This document shows positions 2,321-44,150 of a stretch of DNA of 64,000 nucleotides, in pieces. Location of the stretch: the sequence record MG589383; one strand, written 5' to 3'. Under the pieces are notes generated by a model. It was not told where the DNA came from. It saw nothing but the letters and a program-made list of their open reading frames with translations, and searched no databases. The first letter of the stretch is position 1, and the number at the start of each line of letters is the position of its first letter. The DNA is from Shigella phage phi25-307. Both the position numbers and the translations under genes were made by a program.

Positions 2321-3489
2321 CAGTATTCCAACGTCCAGGATATCCTAACTTAAGCGTTAAATTATATCAAGATTATTCGGCTTGGCAAGAAAATAGATAT
2401 GTTGAACTCGCAGCAACAATAACAACTTTAACCATGCGAGATTCGCTATATGGAAGAAATGAAGGGATTCTTCAATTTTATGACACTAAAAACATCCACA
2501 CTAAAATGGATGGTAGACAGATAGTCCAAATCTCTGTTTCAAATTCAAACACACCTCTCCAAGTTAGAACTCGAATTTATGGATGTAGACATTATTCTGT
2601 GTCTGTGGACTCAAAAGGTGACAATATTATTGCAATTGAGCTTGGAACAATACATTCTATAGAGAACCTTAAATTTGGGCGACCATTCTTCTCAGACGCA
2701 GGAGAATCTATACGTGAAATGTTAGGTGTCATATATAAAGACCGTACGTTAATTACTCCGCCAATAAACACTATTAATGCTTATGTTCCTGATATTCCTT
2801 GGACAAGCACATTTGATGATTATTTGGCATATGTCAGAGAATTAGGACTTGCTACAGCGAGTGATAAGTTCGTATTCGTATGGCAAGATATTTTAGGCGT
2901 AAACATGATTGACTATGATACTCTTATTGGTCAGGAAGGCATTAAGATGGTTGTAGGTGAGCCAAATACTGTAGGTCAGTATATTCAAGAGCTTGAGTAT
3001 CCATTAGTATGGGATTTCACCTGGATGACTAAAGCTAACCAATTTACAAGAGACCCTATTAAAAACGCCACGATATTCGCTCATTCATTTTTAGATACAT
3101 CTATTCCGGTTATTGTTACAGGCGATGGTGATAATGCTATTCTTGTGTCAAGATCAGGTGGATATTCCGAAATGACCTATCGTAATGGATTTGAAGAAGC
3201 AAGTCGTCTTCAGACAATGGCTCAATACGACGGATATGCTAAATGCACTACTACAGGTAATTTTAACATAACGCCTGCTACTAAAATTATATTTGTTGAC
3301 CAAAAGAACCAATTCAAATCCGAATTTTACGTAGATGAAGTTATTCATGAGTTATCAAATAACAACTCGCAAACTCATCTGTACATGTTTACCAACTCAA
3401 TGGTGTTAGAACCTGTTAACCCAGTTAAGGTTAAAAATGAACTTAAATCTGATTCTACCTCTAAAGAAAATAATTCTACCACAGTCTAA
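2317..3489 (+). CDS. 27: baseplate hub subunit gp27 (390 aa)
   Basis: Size and synteny (T4 gp27 391 aa); ATGA start/stop overlap with gene 51. Confidence 0.88.
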
Positions 3490-34562: not shown

Positions 34563-37500
34563 ATGGCCGACATCAAACGTAAGTTCAGAGCCGAAGACGG
34601 TCTGGACGCCGGTGGCGACAAGATTGTTAACGTAGCATTAGCCGACCGTACAGTAGGTACTGATGGCGTAAACGTTGACTTCCTGGTACAAGAAAACACC
34701 GTTCAAGTATATGATTCTACGCGTGGATATAACAAAGGATTTGTTGTTCTTTATGACAACCGTTTATATCAAGCAATAAATGATATCGTGTCTCCTTCCG
34801 GGGCATTTAACCTTTTACAATGGCGCACAGTTCGTACCGATGCACAATGGATAACTGTCGCTTCTGGGACTTATCAACTTTCTTCAGGTGAATCGATTTC
34901 GGTTAACACTGCTGCCGGCAATGATATGGTTTTCACATTGCCAAGTACGCCGGTTGATGGTGATACTGTTGTTTTGGCTGATATCGGTGGAAGAACCGGG
35001 ACAGTTAAAGTACAGATTAACGCGTCTGTGCAGAGTATTTTAAACTTTAGAGGTGAACAAGTTCGTTCAGTTTTAATGACGCGACCACGTTCACAACTAG
35101 TGTTTGTGTTTAGTAATCGTTTGTGGCAGATGTATATCATTGATTACGGTAAAGAATCAATCACTGTTACACCAGCGGCACCATATCAAGCACAAGCAAA
35201 TGATTTTATCGTTCGTCGTTTTACTAGTGCAGCACCAATCAACATTACACTTCCACGTAATGCTAACAATGGTGATATAATCAGCCTAGTCGATTTAGAT
35301 AAATTAAACCCACTGTATCATACAATTGTTAAAACATTTGATGATACAACGTCTATTGGTGAAGTCGGGACTCATATTGCCGAAGGCAGAAATGACTCTG
35401 ACGCGTTTTTTGTTTTTGATGCTGCAAATAGTTTATGGCGTATATGGGAAGGCGACCAGAAATCGCGTCTTCGTATTATCCGTGCGGATTCAAATATTCG
35501 TCCAAATGAAGAAGTTCTTATTTTTGGCACAAATAACGCTGCAACCGGAACTATTAATCTTACGCTGCCTACCGGAATTTTGAGTGGTGACACTGTTAAA
35601 ATTTCAATGAACTACATGCGTAAAGGCCAAACAGTAAAAATTAAAGCTGCCGAAGGTGATACAATTGCTTCTTCTGTTGCGTTGCTTCAGTTCCCTAAAC
35701 GTTCTGAGTATCCACCTGATGCTCAATGGGTCTCTGTTACTGAACTAGAATTCAATGGCACTACTTCATATGTTCCTGTATTAGAATTATCGTATATCGA
35801 AGACACCGTTGCTGGTACACGTTATTGGGTTGTGCAACAAAACGTCCCAACTGTAGAACGTGTTGATGCTGGAACTGATGCTACACGAGCTCGTTTAGGT
35901 GTTATTGCTCTTGCTACTCAAGCGCAAGCAAACGTTGATTTTGAAAATTCTCCGGCTAAAGAAGTTGCTATTACTCCTGAAACGTTGGCAAATCGTACAG
36001 CAACTGAAGCTCGACGTGGTATCGCTAAAATTGCTACAACAGCACAAGTTAACCAGAATTCCACAGCATCATTTGTGGACGATACTATTGTTACGCCTAA
36101 AAAACTAAATGAGCGTACAGCAACTGAAACTCGTCGTGGTCTTGCTGAAATTGCTACTCAGGCTGAAACAGATGCTGGTCTTGATGACACAACGATTATT
36201 ACACCTAAGAAATTGCAGGCACGTCAGGGTTCTGAAACACTATCTGGTATAGTTAAATATGTATCAACTACTTCTGCTACTCCTGCTGAAACTCGTGGGG
36301 CTGCAGGCACTAATGTTTATAATAAAACCGTAAATAATTTAACTATTTCTCCTAAAGCCCTTGACCAATATAAAGCAACTTACGCCCAACAAGGTGCAGT
36401 AATTTTAGCTATTGATAGTGAAGTAATTGCTGGACAATCTCAGTCTGGATACTCTCATGCTGTAGTAACTCCTGAAACACTACATAAGAAAACTTCTACT
36501 GATGGACGTATTGGTTTAATTGAAATTGCTACGCAAGCAGAAACTAATGCTGGGACTGATTATACACGTGCAGTAACGCCTAAGACGTTAAATGATAGGA
36601 GAGCGACGGAAGGATTATCCGGCATAGCCGAAATTGCTACGCAAGTTGAATTTGATACTGGAACTGATGATACTCGTATCTCGACTCCACTGAAAATTAA
36701 AACTCATTTTGATTCTTCTGACCGTACCAGTGTTAATTCTGATTCCGGACTTATTGAAGAAGGAACCTTGTGGAACCATTATACTCTTGATATTTCTAAA
36801 GCAAATGAAACACAACGTGGTACACTTCGCGTAGCGACCCAGGCAGAATCTAATGCAGGAACTTTAGATGATGTTCTTATTACTCCTAAAAAGCTTTTAG
36901 GGACTAAGTCCACTGAAACGTCTGAAGGTGTAATCAAGGTTGCAACCCAGTCTGAAACTGTGACTGGAACGTCAGCGAACACTGCTGTATCTCCTAAGAA
37001 TTTAAAATGGATTGTGCAGAGTGAACCAACATGGGCTGCTACTACAGCAATTCGCGGATTCGTTAAAACTTCATCCGGTTCTATTACATTCGTTGGTAAT
37101 GATACAGTCGGTTCTACACAAAACTTAGAGCTATACGAGAAAAATAGCTATGCAGTATCACCGTATGAATTAAACCGTGTATTGGCAAATTACTTGCCAT
37201 TAAAAGCAAAAGCTGCTGACGCAAATTTATTAGATGGCCTAGATTCATCTCAGTTCATTCGTAGGGACATTGCACAGACGGTTAATGGTTCACTAACCTT
37301 AACCCAACAAACGAATCTGAGTGCCCCTCTTGTATCATCTAGTACGGCTACGTTTGGTGGTTCGGTATCTGCTAATAGTACATTAACTATTTCTAATACA
37401 GGTGCTTCAACTCGCTTAATATTTGAAAAAGGTCCACAAACTGGAAACAACCCTGCTCAGGCGATGAATATCCGTGTATGGGGTAACCAATTCGCCGGCG

Positions 37501-38438
37501 GTTCTGATACATCTCGTGCTACGATATTTGAAGTTGGTGATGAAACATCTAACCACTTTTATTCACAACGGGATAACCTTGGTAATATTACTTTCAGCAT
37601 CAACGGTACAGTTCGGCCGATTAATGTTAATGCATCCGGAACATTGAATGCTAATGGTGCGGCAACATTTGGACGTTCGGTGACAGCACAGGGTGAATTT
37701 ATAACCTATAGTGCAAACGCATTCAGAGCAATTAGTGGTAATTACGGATTCTTTATTCGTAATGATGCTGCTAATACCTATTTTATGCTTACTGCATCAG
37801 GTGATCAGACTGGCGGATTTAATGGATTACGTCCTTTAGCTATTAATAATGCATCCGGCCAAGTAACGATTGGTGAAGGCTTAATCATTGCCAAAGGTGC
37901 TACTATAAATTCAGGTGGTTTAACTGTTAACTCGAGAATTCGTTCTCATGGTTCTAAAACTGCTGATTTATACACTCGTGCTCCTACTGCTGATACAGTC
38001 GGATTCTGGTCAATCGATATTAACGATTCAGCCACTTATAACCAGTTCCCGGGTTATTTTAAAATGGTTGAAAAAACTAATGAAGTGACTGGACTTCCAT
38101 ACTTAGAACGTGGCGAAGAAGTTAAATCTCCTGGTACACTGACTCAGTTTGGTAACACACTTGATTCGCTTTACCAAGATTGGATTACTTATCCAACAAC
38201 TCCAGAAGCACGTACAACCCGTTGGACACGTACATGGCAGAAAACTAAAAATTCTTGGTCGAGTTTTGTTCAGGTATTTGATGGTGGAAACCCTCCTCAA
38301 CCTTCTGATATTGGTGCTTTACCTTCTGATAATGCAACAATCGGAAACTTGACAATAAGAGATTTCTTAAGGATTGGTAACGTCCGCATTATTCCAGACC
38401 CTGTGAATAAATCTGTTAAATTCGAGTGGATTGAATAA
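34563..38438 (+). CDS. 34: long tail fibre proximal subunit gp34 (1291 aa)
   Basis: Size (T4 1289 aa), synteny, internal repeated fibre motifs, late promoter TATAAATA at 34525-34532. Confidence 0.93.
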   Translation: MADIKRKFRAEDGLDAGGDKIVNVALADRTVGTDGVNVDFLVQENTVQVYDSTRGYNKGFVVLYDNRLYQAINDIVSPSGAFNLLQWRTVRTDAQWITVASGTYQLSSGESISVNTAAGNDMVFTLPSTPVDGDTVVLADIGGRTGTVKVQINASVQSILNFRGEQVRSVLMTRPRSQLVFVFSNRLWQMYIIDYGKESITVTPAAPYQAQANDFIVRRFTSAAPINITLPRNANNGDIISLVDLDKLNPLYHTIVKTFDDTTSIGEVGTHIAEGRNDSDAFFVFDAANSLWRIWEGDQKSRLRIIRADSNIRPNEEVLIFGTNNAATGTINLTLPTGILSGDTVKISMNYMRKGQTVKIKAAEGDTIASSVALLQFPKRSEYPPDAQWVSVTELEFNGTTSYVPVLELSYIEDTVAGTRYWVVQQNVPTVERVDAGTDATRARLGVIALATQAQANVDFENSPAKEVAITPETLANRTATEARRGIAKIATTAQVNQNSTASFVDDTIVTPKKLNERTATETRRGLAEIATQAETDAGLDDTTIITPKKLQARQGSETLSGIVKYVSTTSATPAETRGAAGTNVYNKTVNNLTISPKALDQYKATYAQQGAVILAIDSEVIAGQSQSGYSHAVVTPETLHKKTSTDGRIGLIEIATQAETNAGTDYTRAVTPKTLNDRRATEGLSGIAEIATQVEFDTGTDDTRISTPLKIKTHFDSSDRTSVNSDSGLIEEGTLWNHYTLDISKANETQRGTLRVATQAESNAGTLDDVLITPKKLLGTKSTETSEGVIKVATQSETVTGTSANTAVSPKNLKWIVQSEPTWAATTAIRGFVKTSSGSITFVGNDTVGSTQNLELYEKNSYAVSPYELNRVLANYLPLKAKAADANLLDGLDSSQFIRRDIAQTVNGSLTLTQQTNLSAPLVSSSTATFGGSVSANSTLTISNTGASTRLIFEKGPQTGNNPAQAMNIRVWGNQFAGGSDTSRATIFEVGDETSNHFYSQRDNLGNITFSINGTVRPINVNASGTLNANGAATFGRSVTAQGEFITYSANAFRAISGNYGFFIRNDAANTYFMLTASGDQTGGFNGLRPLAINNASGQVTIGEGLIIAKGATINSGGLTVNSRIRSHGSKTADLYTRAPTADTVGFWSIDINDSATYNQFPGYFKMVEKTNEVTGLPYLERGEEVKSPGTLTQFGNTLDSLYQDWITYPTTPEARTTRWTRTWQKTKNSWSSFVQVFDGGNPPQPSDIGALPSDNATIGNLTIRDFLRIGNVRIIPDPVNKSVKFEWIE

Positions 38439-38446
38439 GAGGTATT

Positions 38447-39574
38447 ATGGAAAAATTTATGGCTAAGTTTGGACAAGGATACGTCCAAACGCCATTTTTA
38501 TCGGAAAGCAATTCAGTACGATTTAAATTAAGCATAGCGGGCTCTTGCCCGCTATCAACATCTCCTGCTTATATTAAGTTCCAGGATAATCCACTTGGGT
38601 CCCAGGTTTTTTCTGTTGGATTAAACGTTCGTGTAATAAATCCTACAACAGGTGCAGTAGTTGAATCTAAGTCATATAATTTCTCTACTGAAAACGACAC
38701 AACGTCAAGTGCATTTGTTACTTTCATGGACACATATGCTTCAAATTTTATATTTGCTCTTGTTACTAACGCTAAAACAAACTTTCCGCCTGAAGTTCTT
38801 ACATGGTTTAATAAAGCCGGAAGTTCTGCTATTCCATTAGCTCAACAAGTTTTAAATATAGTGGACATTTCTTATTCGGCATTTTATATTTCTGGTAAGA
38901 ATGCTATAGCACTAGAACATATTAAGTATAGTAATAAGAAAACTTCAACCGACTATAGTACACCACTTGATGTTGTGTATGACACGATCGACGATATTGG
39001 TGCTACCGGCTTCCCTAGTCGTACGTATGAATCGACAGACACATTTTTATCTGCCGTTGGAGGTACTAATAATGAAATTAAAAGGATGCCTACAACATCC
39101 CTTATTACACCTCTCGCTGGGTATAAATTGAAGCCTGGAGATTTCCTTTATATGAAATTCCAACTAATGGCTGATGCCGATTTGTTAGCACAAGGGACGA
39201 CACGACTTTCTATTCGTTTCTTTAAATCTCCTTCTACTTCACCTATTTCATTTAAGGATACAAACTTTGATGGGGCTGCAGGTGAATGGAAGATATATGA
39301 AGACTACATAGAAATTCCTGCTGGTGCTGACGGGTTCACGATTTATTGTTATCGTACAGCTCCAGTCGGGCAAGGTGGATTAAGAAACGTTATATTCACT
39401 GAAGTATCATGTAATGGAAGCGTTTCAAAACCTGCTGAGTTTGGTGTAAATGGTATTCGTGTAAATTATGTTTCAGAATCTTTAAGTGCCCCAGACATAA
39501 TGACATTACCTACTCAATCTTCAACTGATACTGGTAAGGTATTTGGTCAAGAATTTAAAGAAGCATCAGAATAA
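38447..39574 (+). CDS. 35: long tail fibre hinge connector gp35 (375 aa)
   Basis: Size and synteny with T4 gp35. Confidence 0.85.
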   Translation: MEKFMAKFGQGYVQTPFLSESNSVRFKLSIAGSCPLSTSPAYIKFQDNPLGSQVFSVGLNVRVINPTTGAVVESKSYNFSTENDTTSSAFVTFMDTYASNFIFALVTNAKTNFPPEVLTWFNKAGSSAIPLAQQVLNIVDISYSAFYISGKNAIALEHIKYSNKKTSTDYSTPLDVVYDTIDDIGATGFPSRTYESTDTFLSAVGGTNNEIKRMPTTSLITPLAGYKLKPGDFLYMKFQLMADADLLAQGTTRLSIRFFKSPSTSPISFKDTNFDGAAGEWKIYEDYIEIPAGADGFTIYCYRTAPVGQGGLRNVIFTEVSCNGSVSKPAEFGVNGIRVNYVSESLSAPDIMTLPTQSSTDTGKVFGQEFKEASE

Positions 39575-40310: not shown

Positions 40311-43300
40311 ATGGCTACATTAAAACAGATACAATTTAAAAGAAGCAAAGTAGCAGGAGTTAATCCTACTGCAGCACAATTAGCCGAAGGCGAATTAGCG
40401 ATAAACTTAAAAGATCGAACTCTTTTTACTAAAGATGACCTCGGTAATATTATTAGCCTAGGCTTTGCTAAGGGCGGGGATATTAACGGTAATGTAACTC
40501 AAAATGGAGATTATTTACAGAACGGTACATATAATCTCAATGGAAACCAGTTTGTTTATGCAGGAAAATATATTGAATTTTTACCTAAAACTGCAGGCAA
40601 TGGTGCTTGGGCTAACCAACATTTGAATAAAGCCCCTATCTTTACAGATTTAAGTTCAACTACTTCTGTTTCAGAATACCATCCGCTGATTAAACAACGC
40701 TATAAAGATGGAACTTTTTCTGCTGGTACATTAGTAAACGAAGGTAGTTTTAAATTCCATTATATTGATGAAACCAGGACTTCAAAATACTGGACTTTTA
40801 ATCGAAACGGTAATTTTCAAGTTGATTCCGGAAGTTTATTAGTATCTAATGGATATTTAGTTACTCAAAGTAATATTGAAACTAAAGCTGGTTCTTTAAT
40901 TGGTCCTAAAGTTATTACCAAAAATATCAATGTGAGCACTAAATCTTGGGACACTAATATTGATACTGCATATGATTTAGTTTCATTACCTACTTGGCAG
41001 TATACTCCAACCGAAACGGATTTGGATACTAATGGTATAAACTACCTTCGTAAATTCCGCGGACATGTTTCTTCTGCTATTTTCCATGAAGTTGCTGATG
41101 CTCGTTCAGGTAAACCACAGAATATTTCGTATTGGACGGGACGTAATGCTGAAGTTTATCAATGGTCTTATACCACAGATGGGCGTATGTCTGTTGCTAA
41201 TTCGATAGGTATAGGTCTTGCTGATGTTGGTGACCAAGGACGTTATCCATTGGTTTCGTTTGGTAAAGGTATTGCAATTGGTGACAATGATACTGGTATT
41301 AAATGGGTTCGTGACGGGGTTATCGATTTAGTTGCGAATGGTATTTCTGCCGGCACTATTCTTAATAACGGTATTAACAGTACTAAAAAATTGATGGTCG
41401 GTTATAGCCGCGATTCTGGTACTACTTGGGATTTCCCAAATAACAACCAAGCAATGTTTACCGCACGCACCGATGTTGATGGTAATAATAACGGCGATGG
41501 TCAGACTCATATCGGTTATAACAGTAATTCTAAAATGTATCACTATTTCCGTGGTACAGGTCGTATGGCTGTTGGTATGTCCCAAGGTCTCCTTGTTGAA
41601 CCAGGAATTTTAGATATTAGCACTGGTTCAAATACATTAAGTTTGCGTGCTGACGGTACTGTTGCTTCTGTTCAAACGTTAAAGCTTAATAATGGATTAT
41701 ATTTTAATGGTGATGGAACTAATGCTTCTTTAGTTTTTAAAGCAGCTTCAGGTATTGATGGCACTAAGCAAATTATGTGGGAAGGTGGTAAGCGTGCTGG
41801 TCAAAATAAAAGTTATGTGACAGCTAAAGCTTGGGGTAATTCATTTAACGCATCTGGCGATCGTAATCGTGAAACAGTTTTTGAAGTAGCTGACGGACAA
41901 GGTTATTACTTTTATGCGCAGCGTGTAGCTCCCGCTTCAGGATCTACTGTCGGACCAATTCAATTTAGAATTGCTGGAGCATTATTAACCGGTGGTGGTA
42001 TTACATCATCCGGCTCGATTGTTACAGAATCAAGTTTAGTTGCTAATAACGGATTATCTGTAAATGGCCAGGCTAAATTTGGCGGAACAGCTGATGCATT
42101 AAGAATTTGGGATGCCGAATATGGCGCTATTTTCCGTCGTTCAGAAACAGCATTACATATTATCCCGACCAATAAAGATGCTGGTGAATCTGGTGGAATA
42201 AGCAATCTGCGCCCATTGAGCATCGCACTTAACAACGGTATGGTTCAAATGCGTCATTCTGTCACGTTAGGTGATGATGGTGCAGGCGGTAATATGATTA
42301 CTGTGGACAACGATAACAAACTTGTTGTTGTTACTAGTCATAGTCGTATTTCTCCTAATTACCGTATGCAGGTAGGACAAGCAGCTTATATTGATGCTGA
42401 ATGTACTGACACCGTTCGCCCGGCTGGTGCAGGGTCTTTTGCTTCACAAAATAATGAAAACGTTCGTGCTCCGTTCTATATGAATATTAATCGCACAGAT
42501 ACAAGTACTTACGTTCCTATTTTAAAACAACGTTATGTTCAAGGAAATAGCTGTTATTCTTTAGGTACTTTAATAAATGGCGGTAACTTCAGAGTTCATT
42601 ATCATGAAGGTGGAGACGGAAGTTCAACAGGCGCAACTATAAAAGATTTAGGCTGGGAATTTACACGTTCTGGTGATTTTATATCTCCTAAGCGCATTTC
42701 TGCTGGGGGTTCAGTTTATTTAGGCACAGACGGTAACATTACTGGTGGTTCTGGTAATTTTGCCAACTTAAATAGTACAATTGAATCACTTAAAACTGAT
42801 ATTGTTTCAAGTTATCCTATTGGAGCTCCGATTCCTTGGCCTACTGATACACCTCCTGAAGGTTACGCCATAATGGAAGGTCAAACATTTGATGCTGGCT
42901 TGTATCCTAAGTTAGCTGCTGTGTATCCTTCCGGCTCTCTGCCTGATATGCGTGGTCAAACTATCAAGGGTAAACCATCTGGGCGTGCTGTATTAAGTAC
43001 AGAAGCAGACGGTGTTAAGTCACATAGCCATAGTGCAAGTGCATCAAACACGGATTTGGGTACTAAAACCACTTCTAGTTTTGATTACGGTAGCAAAACG
43101 ACTTCAAGCTTTGATTATGGTACTAAGACCAGTAATACCACTGGCAACCATAACCATACAGTGAGTGGTAATACTAGTTCCGCTGGTGCTCACCGACACG
43201 CGCGTTCAGGCCCTCAGATTCAATACGGCGTACACACTAGCATATTCTATGATGGATACAATAGTGCTGGTCCAAATGGCAACGCTAAAATCACTGGAAC

Positions 43301-43568
43301 CGTGAGTGGTGCTACTGCATCGTCGAATATGGCCAAAACTTCTTCAGACGGTGCCCACACCCATAGTTGGTCTGGTACTACTAGCACCACAGGTAACCAT
43401 GCCCACACCGTAGGTATTGGCGCCCATACTCACACCGTAGGTATTGGCGCTCACACCCATTCGGTTGCAATTGGTTCACATGGTCATACAATAACTGTAA
43501 ATGCCACAGGAAATACAGAAAACACAGTTAAAAACGTTGCTTTTAACTATATCGTTCGTTTAGCATAA
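40311..43568 (+). CDS. 37: long tail fibre distal subunit / receptor-recognising gp37 (1085 aa)
   Basis: Size, synteny, C-terminal HxH repeat region, followed by T4-type gp38 gene. Confidence 0.9.
43407..43514 (+). repeat. four tandem 27-nt coding repeats in gene 37 encoding H-x-H-[TS]-[VI]-x-[IV]-[GN]-x units
   Basis: CATGCCCACACCGTAGGTATTGGCGCC / CATACTCACACCGTAGGTATTGGCGCT and two degenerate copies, in frame. Confidence 0.8.
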
Positions 43569-43574
43569 GGAGAA

Positions 43575-43593
43575 GGGACTTCTGTCCCTTTTT
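43575..43593 (+). terminator. terminator after gene 37 (GGGAC-TTCT-GTCCC, T-tract)
   Basis: Hairpin then TTTTTAT, 7 nt after gene 37 stop. Confidence 0.55.
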
Positions 43594-43598
43594 ATAAT

Positions 43599-44150
43599 AT
43601 GAAACTCTATCACTATTATTTTGACACTAAAGAATTTTACAAAGAAGAAAATTATAAACCATTAAAAGGCGTAGGATTTCCAGCTCATTCGACACCAAAA
43701 AAACCTTTAGACCCTAAAGAAGGCTATGCTGTTGTATTTGATGAACGCGAACAAGAATGGGTATATGTTGAAGACCATCGTGGAAAAACAGTATGGACTT
43801 ATGATAAGCAAAAAATTGTTATTGACACTCCAGGTGCTCTTCAAAATGTTACTACAGAAGAACCTGGTGAATTTGACATTTGGACCGGCGACGGGTGGAA
43901 GGAAGATGAAGCATATAAACGCGTAGTTCAACGTGATAAGAAAATTCATGAACTCTATAAATTATTCAGTGTTTTAAGTTCTCTTATTGACGCAGAGGTT
44001 GCTAATAGAGAAGAAAAACGAAAATTTAAAGAGCTCAAAAAATTCTTTGCCCTTTTAGAAAAACATGAACATCTTGGTGGTGAATTCCCTAAATTCCCTG
44101 ACCTTGAAAACAAATCTATTGTCAAAGCGATTATAAATATCTTTAAGTAA
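43599..44150 (+). CDS. 38: gp38, T4-type tail fibre assembly chaperone (183 aa)
   Basis: Collinear with T4 gp38 (YHYYFDTKEFYKEENYKP, EGYAVVFDER, FALLEKHEHLGGEFP), same length. Confidence 0.88.
   Translation: MKLYHYYFDTKEFYKEENYKPLKGVGFPAHSTPKKPLDPKEGYAVVFDEREQEWVYVEDHRGKTVWTYDKQKIVIDTPGALQNVTTEEPGEFDIWTGDGWKEDEAYKRVVQRDKKIHELYKLFSVLSSLIDAEVANREEKRKFKELKKFFALLEKHEHLGGEFPKFPDLENKSIVKAIINIFK
44132..44139 (+). promoter_or_regulatory. late promoter TATAAATA for holin gene t (inside 3-prime end of gene 38)
   Basis: Exact consensus 21 nt upstream of ATG 44160. Confidence 0.6.

Follow-up and report, generated by a model that had tools for sequence, protein, structure and literature searches.

The window, by which we mean the whole 64,000 nt stretch of Shigella phage phi25-307 DNA (MG589383) that was analysed, contains a long tail fibre block in which ORFs and Pfam matches (Phage_T4_gp36, Collar in gp37, Caudo_TAP in gp38 and Phage_holin_T) define the gene order gp34 (1291 aa)–gp35–gp36–gp37–gp38–holin t. 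Gene 37 (40311..43568), an ORF of 1085 aa lying on the plus strand like all of the features described below, encodes a long tail fibre distal subunit of the T4/TuIa type with a C-terminal adhesin. It is followed by gene 38 (43599..44150), the 183 aa product of which was identified from its Pfam match and its identity to T4 gp38 as a T4-type tail fibre assembly chaperone and not an adhesin; a pattern scan did not call the hairpin 3' of gene 37 a terminator. Bases 1–25000 of the window are 97–99% identical to RB69-like coliphages such as ZQ3, S143_2, SSE1 and F2. No exact copy of gene 37 was found among database records, the best full-length match being that of phage HX01 (92% nucleotide identity). 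Over the last 569 nt of the gene the best record matched at 94.6%, 86 records matched with at least 80% coverage and, among the matches listed, at least 40 phage records aligned without gaps. Gene 37 is thus a new allele of the well-known TuIa/T4-type gp37 tip.

The last 278 aa of gp37 (aa 808–1085) match the T4 gp37 tip structure, PDB 2XGF, with E=1.6e-88 (phmmer against PDB), and over their full length the two proteins are 51% identical. All seven His-x-His (HxH) sites of T4, at residues 883, 915, 929, 966, 980, 989 and 998, align to an HxH motif here, and one more has been added. The likeness to the iron-coordinating T4 needle that had been noted in the original prediction is therefore confirmed, as is its estimate that the protein is about 60 aa longer than its T4 counterpart (1085 versus 1026 aa, a difference of 59 aa). 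In T4 the needle is about 150 Å long (PMC3004832) and contains seven axial irons held in octahedral coordination by the HxH motifs, with H929/H931 being essential iron ligands; the irons lie on the axis within the trimer core and are required for folding, and residues 1010–1026 belong to domain D10 (PMC6957217). By homology to T4, three chains of phi25-307 gp37 would leave the collar, reach a small tip and fold back to the collar to form a six-stranded needle, and at each HxH motif six histidines from the three chains would hold one axial metal ion (iron in T4), giving eight putative metal sites compared with seven in T4. An AlphaFold2 monomer model of aa 808–1085 (28-sequence alignment; pLDDT 51, pTM 0.21) is unusable for an intertwined, metal-dependent trimer of this kind.

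In T4, gp38 assists folding as a chaperone, and the role of adhesin falls to gp37 (PMC3157838, PMC6957217). The gp38 of phi25-307 is 67% identical to that of T4 over its full length, without gaps, and Caudo_TAP is its sole Pfam family. The claim that this is a T4-type chaperone rather than a T2-type adhesin accordingly stands and, as the gene next door encodes a chaperone, the adhesin function is assigned to gp37 and not gp38, as had been proposed and as is established for T4, TuIa and TuIb (PMC3157838, PMC9659904). The gp38 protein, together with gp57A, would act in folding and be absent from the fibre, so that contact with the receptor would be made by a 52 aa tip of gp37.

Eight HxH motifs are present within the C-terminal 181 aa of gp37, starting at aa 905, 947, 961, 1016, 1030, 1039, 1048 and 1057, a number that was reached in only 2 of 100,000 shuffles of aa 890–1085. 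Upstream of them is a collar domain (aa 838–885; 42822..42965; Pfam PF07484 Collar, E=8.3e-11), which aligns to the collar of 2XGF. The first motif, H905-S-H907 (43023..43031), is located on the outgoing strand at the needle base, within KSHSHS (aa 903–908), and aligns to T4 H883/H885. Three His-free outgoing units of 10 aa then follow (aa 915–944; 43053..43142), where T4 has two, the middle one being the extra unit that falls opposite a 10 aa gap in T4; the 30 nt tandem repeat at 43065–43124, detected by Tandem Repeats Finder (TRF) as 43065–43122 and with 24 of 30 nt identical, lies within these units, and the extra unit is of the D-Y-G-S-K type. The outgoing part of a distal 14 aa module (43149..43199) carries the second and third motifs (aa 947–949 and 961–963; T4 H915/H917 and H929/H931) and leads into the tip or 'head' domain (aa 964–1015; 43200..43355), a hypervariable segment of 52 aa (34 aa in T4) that is the presumed receptor-contact region. 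The returning part of the distal module, as judged by alignment with T4, begins with the fourth motif (aa 1016–1018, in GAHTHS, aa 1014–1019) and extends to the start of the terminal array (43356..43391). This returning segment also matched the outgoing distal module of T4, which shows that homologous modules are present on both strands. Four units of 9 aa, G-x-H-x-H-[TS]-[VI]-x-[IV], contain motifs five to eight (aa 1028–1063; 43392..43499; three units in T4, with a 9 aa gap), and the remaining C-terminal strand, which goes back into the collar (43500..43565), is identical to that of TuIa and of P0001 at 21–22 of 22 positions. A 9 nt 'repeat' at 43505–43527 was discarded as a weak, trivial match. 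KSHSHS, GAHTHS and the 30 nt tandem repeat had not been mentioned in the original prediction.

The last four HxH motifs are spaced at exactly 9 aa (27 nt), in frame, and the fourth unit reads GSHGHTITV. The array, frame and period that had been predicted from the DNA were therefore correct, but the span that had been assigned to it, 43407–43514, was 15 nt late, and in that register the first HxH is left out and the fourth unit becomes TITVNATGN, which has no histidine. Two further motifs, GNHNHT (aa 945–950) and GAHRHA (aa 959–964), had been described as more degenerate copies upstream; both are present, but they are not 27 nt units, as they lie 14 aa apart on the outgoing strand and have their counterpart in the returning 14 aa module. 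When the four terminal units are compared at the DNA level, the first and second (A and B) share 22 of 27 nt and the second and third (B and C) 18 of 27, with all other pairs sharing 12–15 of 27, and TRF reports period 27 with only 2.3 copies at 43397–43459 (86%). The array thus appears to be a repeat at the protein level more than at the DNA level. The extra unit is one of the near-identical A/B pair, the 9 aa gap relative to T4 falling at either the A/B or the B/C junction in the two alignments made. Within the fragment covered by the T4 structure there are three insertions, by which the outgoing strand is longer by 10 aa, the tip by 18 aa and the returning strand by one HxH unit of 9 aa, and the shaft, which is diverged from T4 gp37 at aa 61–330, contributes a net gain of approximately 22 aa. 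Judging from these alignments, the additional length relative to T4 is owed only in part to needle repeats.

The architecture of the needle was compared across homologues by pooling three sets, comprising 120 close homologues, 16 IMG/VR loci and 150 representatives (50% identity) of 452 hits, which yielded 167 unique complete needles; the C-termini of lambdoid prophage side tail fibres (Stf) make up most of the homologue hits. The repeat region was kept in frame in the homologues compared, in line with the original prediction. After the first HxH the outgoing strand carries n copies of the His-free 10 aa unit D-[LY]-G-[TS]-K-x-T-S-S-F, and the returning strand ends with n HxH spacings of 9 aa. 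Across the 167 needles the distance between the first and second HxH is 22/23, 32, 41/42 and 52 aa for n=1, 2, 3 and 4, respectively, and two further sequences, with n=5 and n=6, have distances of 62 and 73 aa, respectively. The distal 14 aa HxH module is likewise present in equal number on both strands of the 167 needles, with m=0, 1 or 2. Both rules are obeyed by 165 of 167 needles, the exceptions being one in which the second HxH has been lost and one mosaic metagenome contig, L002. The number of HxH motifs is then given by 3+2m+n, which is 7 for T4 (n=2, m=1), 8 for phi25-307 and TuIa (n=3, m=1) and from 4 to 10 overall. Because many of these needles are relatives of one another, there have been fewer independent coordinated changes than the total of 167 would suggest; they include at least the steps between n=1, 2, 3 and 4 and between m=0, 1 and 2, on several different tip families.

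The fact that the numbers of 10 aa and 9 aa units change together across needles indicates that the extra 27 nt and 30 nt repeats of phi25-307 are two halves of one added needle segment. Such pairing is consistent with a hairpin whose two strands pack against each other at equal distances from the tip. In T4 an outgoing-strand residue, G921, packs on a returning-strand residue, F970, that belongs to a neighbouring chain (PMC6957217). That the chain forms a hairpin, and that the 10 aa and 9 aa units lie next to each other in it, is inferred here from homology and covariation. The needle is built from paired modules: a proximal module consists of a His-free 10 aa outgoing unit paired with a returning 9 aa unit of the form G-x-H-x-H-T-V-x-I, and a distal module consists of one 14 aa HxH unit per strand, so that phi25-307, like TuIa, has three proximal pairs and one distal pair where T4 has two and one. 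The added segment would make the needle some 2–3 nm longer (a rough scaling, from a needle of approximately 150 Å over approximately 50 residues per pass) and provide one more metal site while leaving the receptor-binding surface untouched. More generally, the needle of gp37 and Stf proteins may follow a strict combinatorial grammar (n=1–6, m=0–2, 3+2m+n metal sites) in which indels approximately 100 residues apart become fixed only as pairs and needle length is quantised, independent of the tip and perhaps adjusted to how deep the host surface layer is; this generalization is put forward tentatively, and we would place it a little short of even odds. We found no statement of the pairing rule in the searchable literature, which did not cover Bartual et al. 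(2010) or some other key papers, and the paper on Bas63 says only that the number of motifs may scale with needle length. The paired-module grammar is a tidy and possibly unreported regularity.

It had been proposed that variation in repeat number may act as a host-range switch, with the HxH array serving as a copy-number-variable repeat whose expansion and contraction alter host specificity. Variation in number certainly exists, as T4 has three terminal units where phi25-307 has four, the family as a whole ranges from one to six 9 aa spacings (i.e. two to seven terminal HxH units), and contig L002 has exactly one 27 nt unit fewer than TH54, the isolate closest to it. Moreover, duplications in T4 gene 37 reportedly bring Yersinia into the host range (Tetart 1996, cited in PMC7002106). 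However, the units of the array are only 44–81% identical at the DNA level (12–22 of 27 nt) and are therefore a poor substrate for slippage, and at least 40 phage records with this allele, among the matches listed, are ungapped over the last 569 nt. The T4 duplications are said to concern the segment bounded by His boxes, that is, the specificity region, and not the 9 aa units. In 165 of 167 needles, furthermore, a change in the count is always matched by one in the number of outgoing 10 aa units, encoded approximately 110 residues upstream, tips belonging to one family are carried by n=2 as well as n=3 needles, and variation is concentrated in the tip. Switching by slippage was rejected, since there are no near-identical DNA units and, save for the mosaic L002, no independent copy-number polymorphism among the relatives compared. 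With diverged units, coupled counts, ungapped relatives and variation that lies elsewhere, we consider a host-range switch based on repeat number very improbable, and this part of the original prediction is not upheld.

The evidence points instead to the tip. The 52 aa tip of phi25-307 is identical to that of TuIa at 27 of 52 positions, to that of TH54 at 27 of 52 and to that of P0002 at 22 of 52 (42–52%), whereas the flanking needle segments are 89–98% identical to those of relatives with the same architecture. In several tip families, tips of the one family, 74–84% identical to each other, were found on both n=2 and n=3 needles. The occurrence of similar tips on needles of different length, together with the variation within the tip, argues that repeat number sets needle length and the number of metal sites but not the choice of receptor. 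This agrees with T4, in which the residues that contact the receptor map to the tip (PMC6957217, PMC9659904). Host specificity is thus most likely to be set by the variable 52 aa tip rather than by the number of repeats. With only 27 of 52 tip residues (52%) identical, we ruled out carrying the receptor OmpF over from TuIa to phi25-307.

Contig L002, from IMG sample 3300030021, is the one needle of the 167 in which the two strands are mismatched, its outgoing strand carrying three units and its terminal array no more than three HxH units. Compared with TH54 it shows a clean 27 nt gap of exactly one unit. Over the 600 nt upstream its identity is 94% to TH54 and 75% to the window, while over the 380 nt downstream it is 99.7% to the window and 79% to TH54, and the mosaic junction, at which one 27 nt unit was lost, falls inside the HxH array. 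The contig may be the product of either an unequal crossover in the His-box array or a chimeric assembly. If real, it is a natural case of recombination at conserved His boxes of the kind put forward by Tetart and colleagues (cited in PMC3157838) and, unless it is an assembly chimera, a needle with mismatched strands may be viable.

The position of this junction also bears on a second explanation for the array, namely that the conserved HxH-coding boxes around the tip serve mainly as short patches of homology for the swapping of tip cassettes among phages and prophages, and that the array is kept partly for that purpose. The presence of similar tips on different needle backbones is consistent with such exchange, as is the fact that the module is common to T-even phages and the side tail fibres of lambdoid prophages (PMC9659904), and recombination at conserved adhesin motifs has been described (Tetart 1996/1998, as cited in PMC3157838). 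However, L002 may be an artefact of metagenome assembly, with two sequences fused at the repeat that they share, and conservation of the histidines is already accounted for by their essential structural role in T4 (PMC6957217). We therefore regard retention of the array for recombination as possible but rather unlikely, and such a role would add to the structural role of the histidines and not replace it.

A third explanation is that the bound iron is itself displayed as a ligand for a siderophore or iron receptor of the host, the so-called 'Ferrojan horse', a hypothesis that has been published for fibres bearing HxH motifs (PMC11705849) and for which eight putative iron sites might seem well suited. 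The irons of T4 are, however, buried on the trimer axis, and contacts with the receptor are made by residues on the surface of the tip (PMC6957217). In addition, the known receptors of the family are porins and LPS (PMC6957217, PMC9659904), and nothing in the window points to the use of an iron receptor. We give iron display almost no credence.

Taken together, the data identify the region, with a probability of roughly 0.87, as encoding the receptor-binding end of a long tail fibre from a T4-like coliphage of the RB69 group, comprising a needle of the histidine/iron type with one added module and a tip in which specificity most likely resides. For prediction or engineering of the host range of phi25-307, the target should therefore be aa 964–1015 and not the histidine array. 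In the design of chimeric fibres, the numbers of outgoing and returning units must stay matched, and the natural junctions for swapping are the conserved HxH boxes that flank the tip. From sequence alone, the rule can also predict how many metal sites the needle has, and how long it is relative to others, in hundreds of phage and prophage fibres.

The fibre belongs to a family that includes T4, TuIa, TuIb, the Stf of Ur-lambda and more than 200 phages, and that is characterized by conserved flanks around a specificity segment of 30–70 aa and by gp38/Tfa chaperones (PMC9659904). With the T4 gp37 tip (2XGF; Bartual et al., 2010) it shares the collar–needle–tip plan, the seven HxH sites and the gp38 and holin genes downstream, but it has one more proximal needle module, giving eight HxH motifs, and its tip, longer by 18 aa, is not related to that of T4 in sequence. 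The closest parallel is protein 37 of TuIa (GenBank X55190; Montag, Hashemolhosseini & Henning, 1990), the receptor of which is OmpF (PMC9659904). The spacing of HxH motifs is 42, 14, 55, 14, 9, 9 and 9 in both proteins, each has three outgoing D-x-G-x-K units and four terminal 9 aa units with a gp38 chaperone gene next to it, and they are 85% identical across the last 278 aa without a gap; they differ in the tip (27 of 52 residues identical) and in the backbone, which is RB69-like in phi25-307. The Stf C-termini of lambdoid prophages, which are accompanied by a Tfa chaperone, have the same collar, needle and tip module and obey the paired-module rule, but their N-terminal shafts and virion context are different and most are of the n=2, m=1 or n=3, m=0 type. 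Fibres of the T2/T6 type occupy the same position in T-even genomes (PMC3157838), yet their gp38 is a glycine-rich adhesin of approximately 260 aa placed on the processed end of gp37, whereas here gp38 is a 183 aa chaperone and gp37 has a tip of its own. The eight-motif architecture is already known from TuIa, deposited in 1990, and from at least 40 sequenced phages, so that current understanding is not overturned; the modest value that is added lies in the paired-module rule.

The distal long tail fibre gene of phage phi25-307, gene 37 (window 40311–43568, plus strand; 1085 aa), is a mosaic hotspot within a conserved backbone. In the closest whole-genome relatives its coverage is just 62–91 %, whereas the genome backbone is otherwise 97–99 % conserved, and the N-terminal third of the gp37 shaft (aa 61–330; window 40491–41300) contains many indels and aligns poorly with T4. 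Further along the shaft, aa 483–665 (window 41757–42305) match the C-terminal part of T4 gp34 for which structures have been determined (4UXE/5NXF; E about 1e-11), the phi25-307 gp34 itself being encoded at window 34563–38438. A ninth His-x-His motif, HYH, lies at aa 763–765 (window 42597–42605), approximately 45 residues ahead of the region of gp37 that matches the crystal structure of the T4 tip (2XGF), and is retained in T4 gp37 at aa 742–744; it is a possible additional metal site within the shaft.

A further mosaic was observed at the array of four 9-aa His-x-His units in the gp37 needle (window 43392–43499) when positions 3100–3312 of a metagenome contig, IMGVR_UViG_3300030021_000020, were compared with window 43330–43571 and with TH54, the isolate nearest to that contig. 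The contig is 94 % TH54-like upstream and 99.7 % window-like downstream of a junction that falls within the array, and one 27-nt unit is missing from it, coincident with the junction. Either an unequal crossover took place naturally at the His boxes, or the contig is a chimera produced during assembly.

Elsewhere in the fibre, the knee protein gp35 (window 38447–39574) matched the Pfam family ILEI (interleukin-like EMT inducer, PF15711) over aa 58–129 (E=7.5e-7; score 30 bits, cut-off 27), a surprising fold label for a knee protein.

Beyond the stop codon of gene 37, the interval (window 43567–43601) that leads up to the ATG of gene 38, which encodes the T4-type tail fibre assembly chaperone, contains a strong hairpin, GAGAAGGGAC-UUCU-GUCCCUUUUU (−15.9 kcal/mol, z −4.3, 0 of 200 shuffles), for which a pattern scan returned no terminator call. 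The hairpin is kept in T4, in TH54 and in TuIa, a phage with an identical needle layout, and in TH54 its stem is altered on both sides (GGGAC/GTCCC versus GGGGC/GCCCC). It lies between a Shine–Dalgarno-like motif, AAGGAG, and the gene 38 ATG approximately 27 nt downstream. In T4, gene 38 has a split ribosome-binding site, in which the Shine–Dalgarno sequence and the AUG are brought together by a hairpin, and this is the arrangement that the phi25-307 hairpin presumably resembles.
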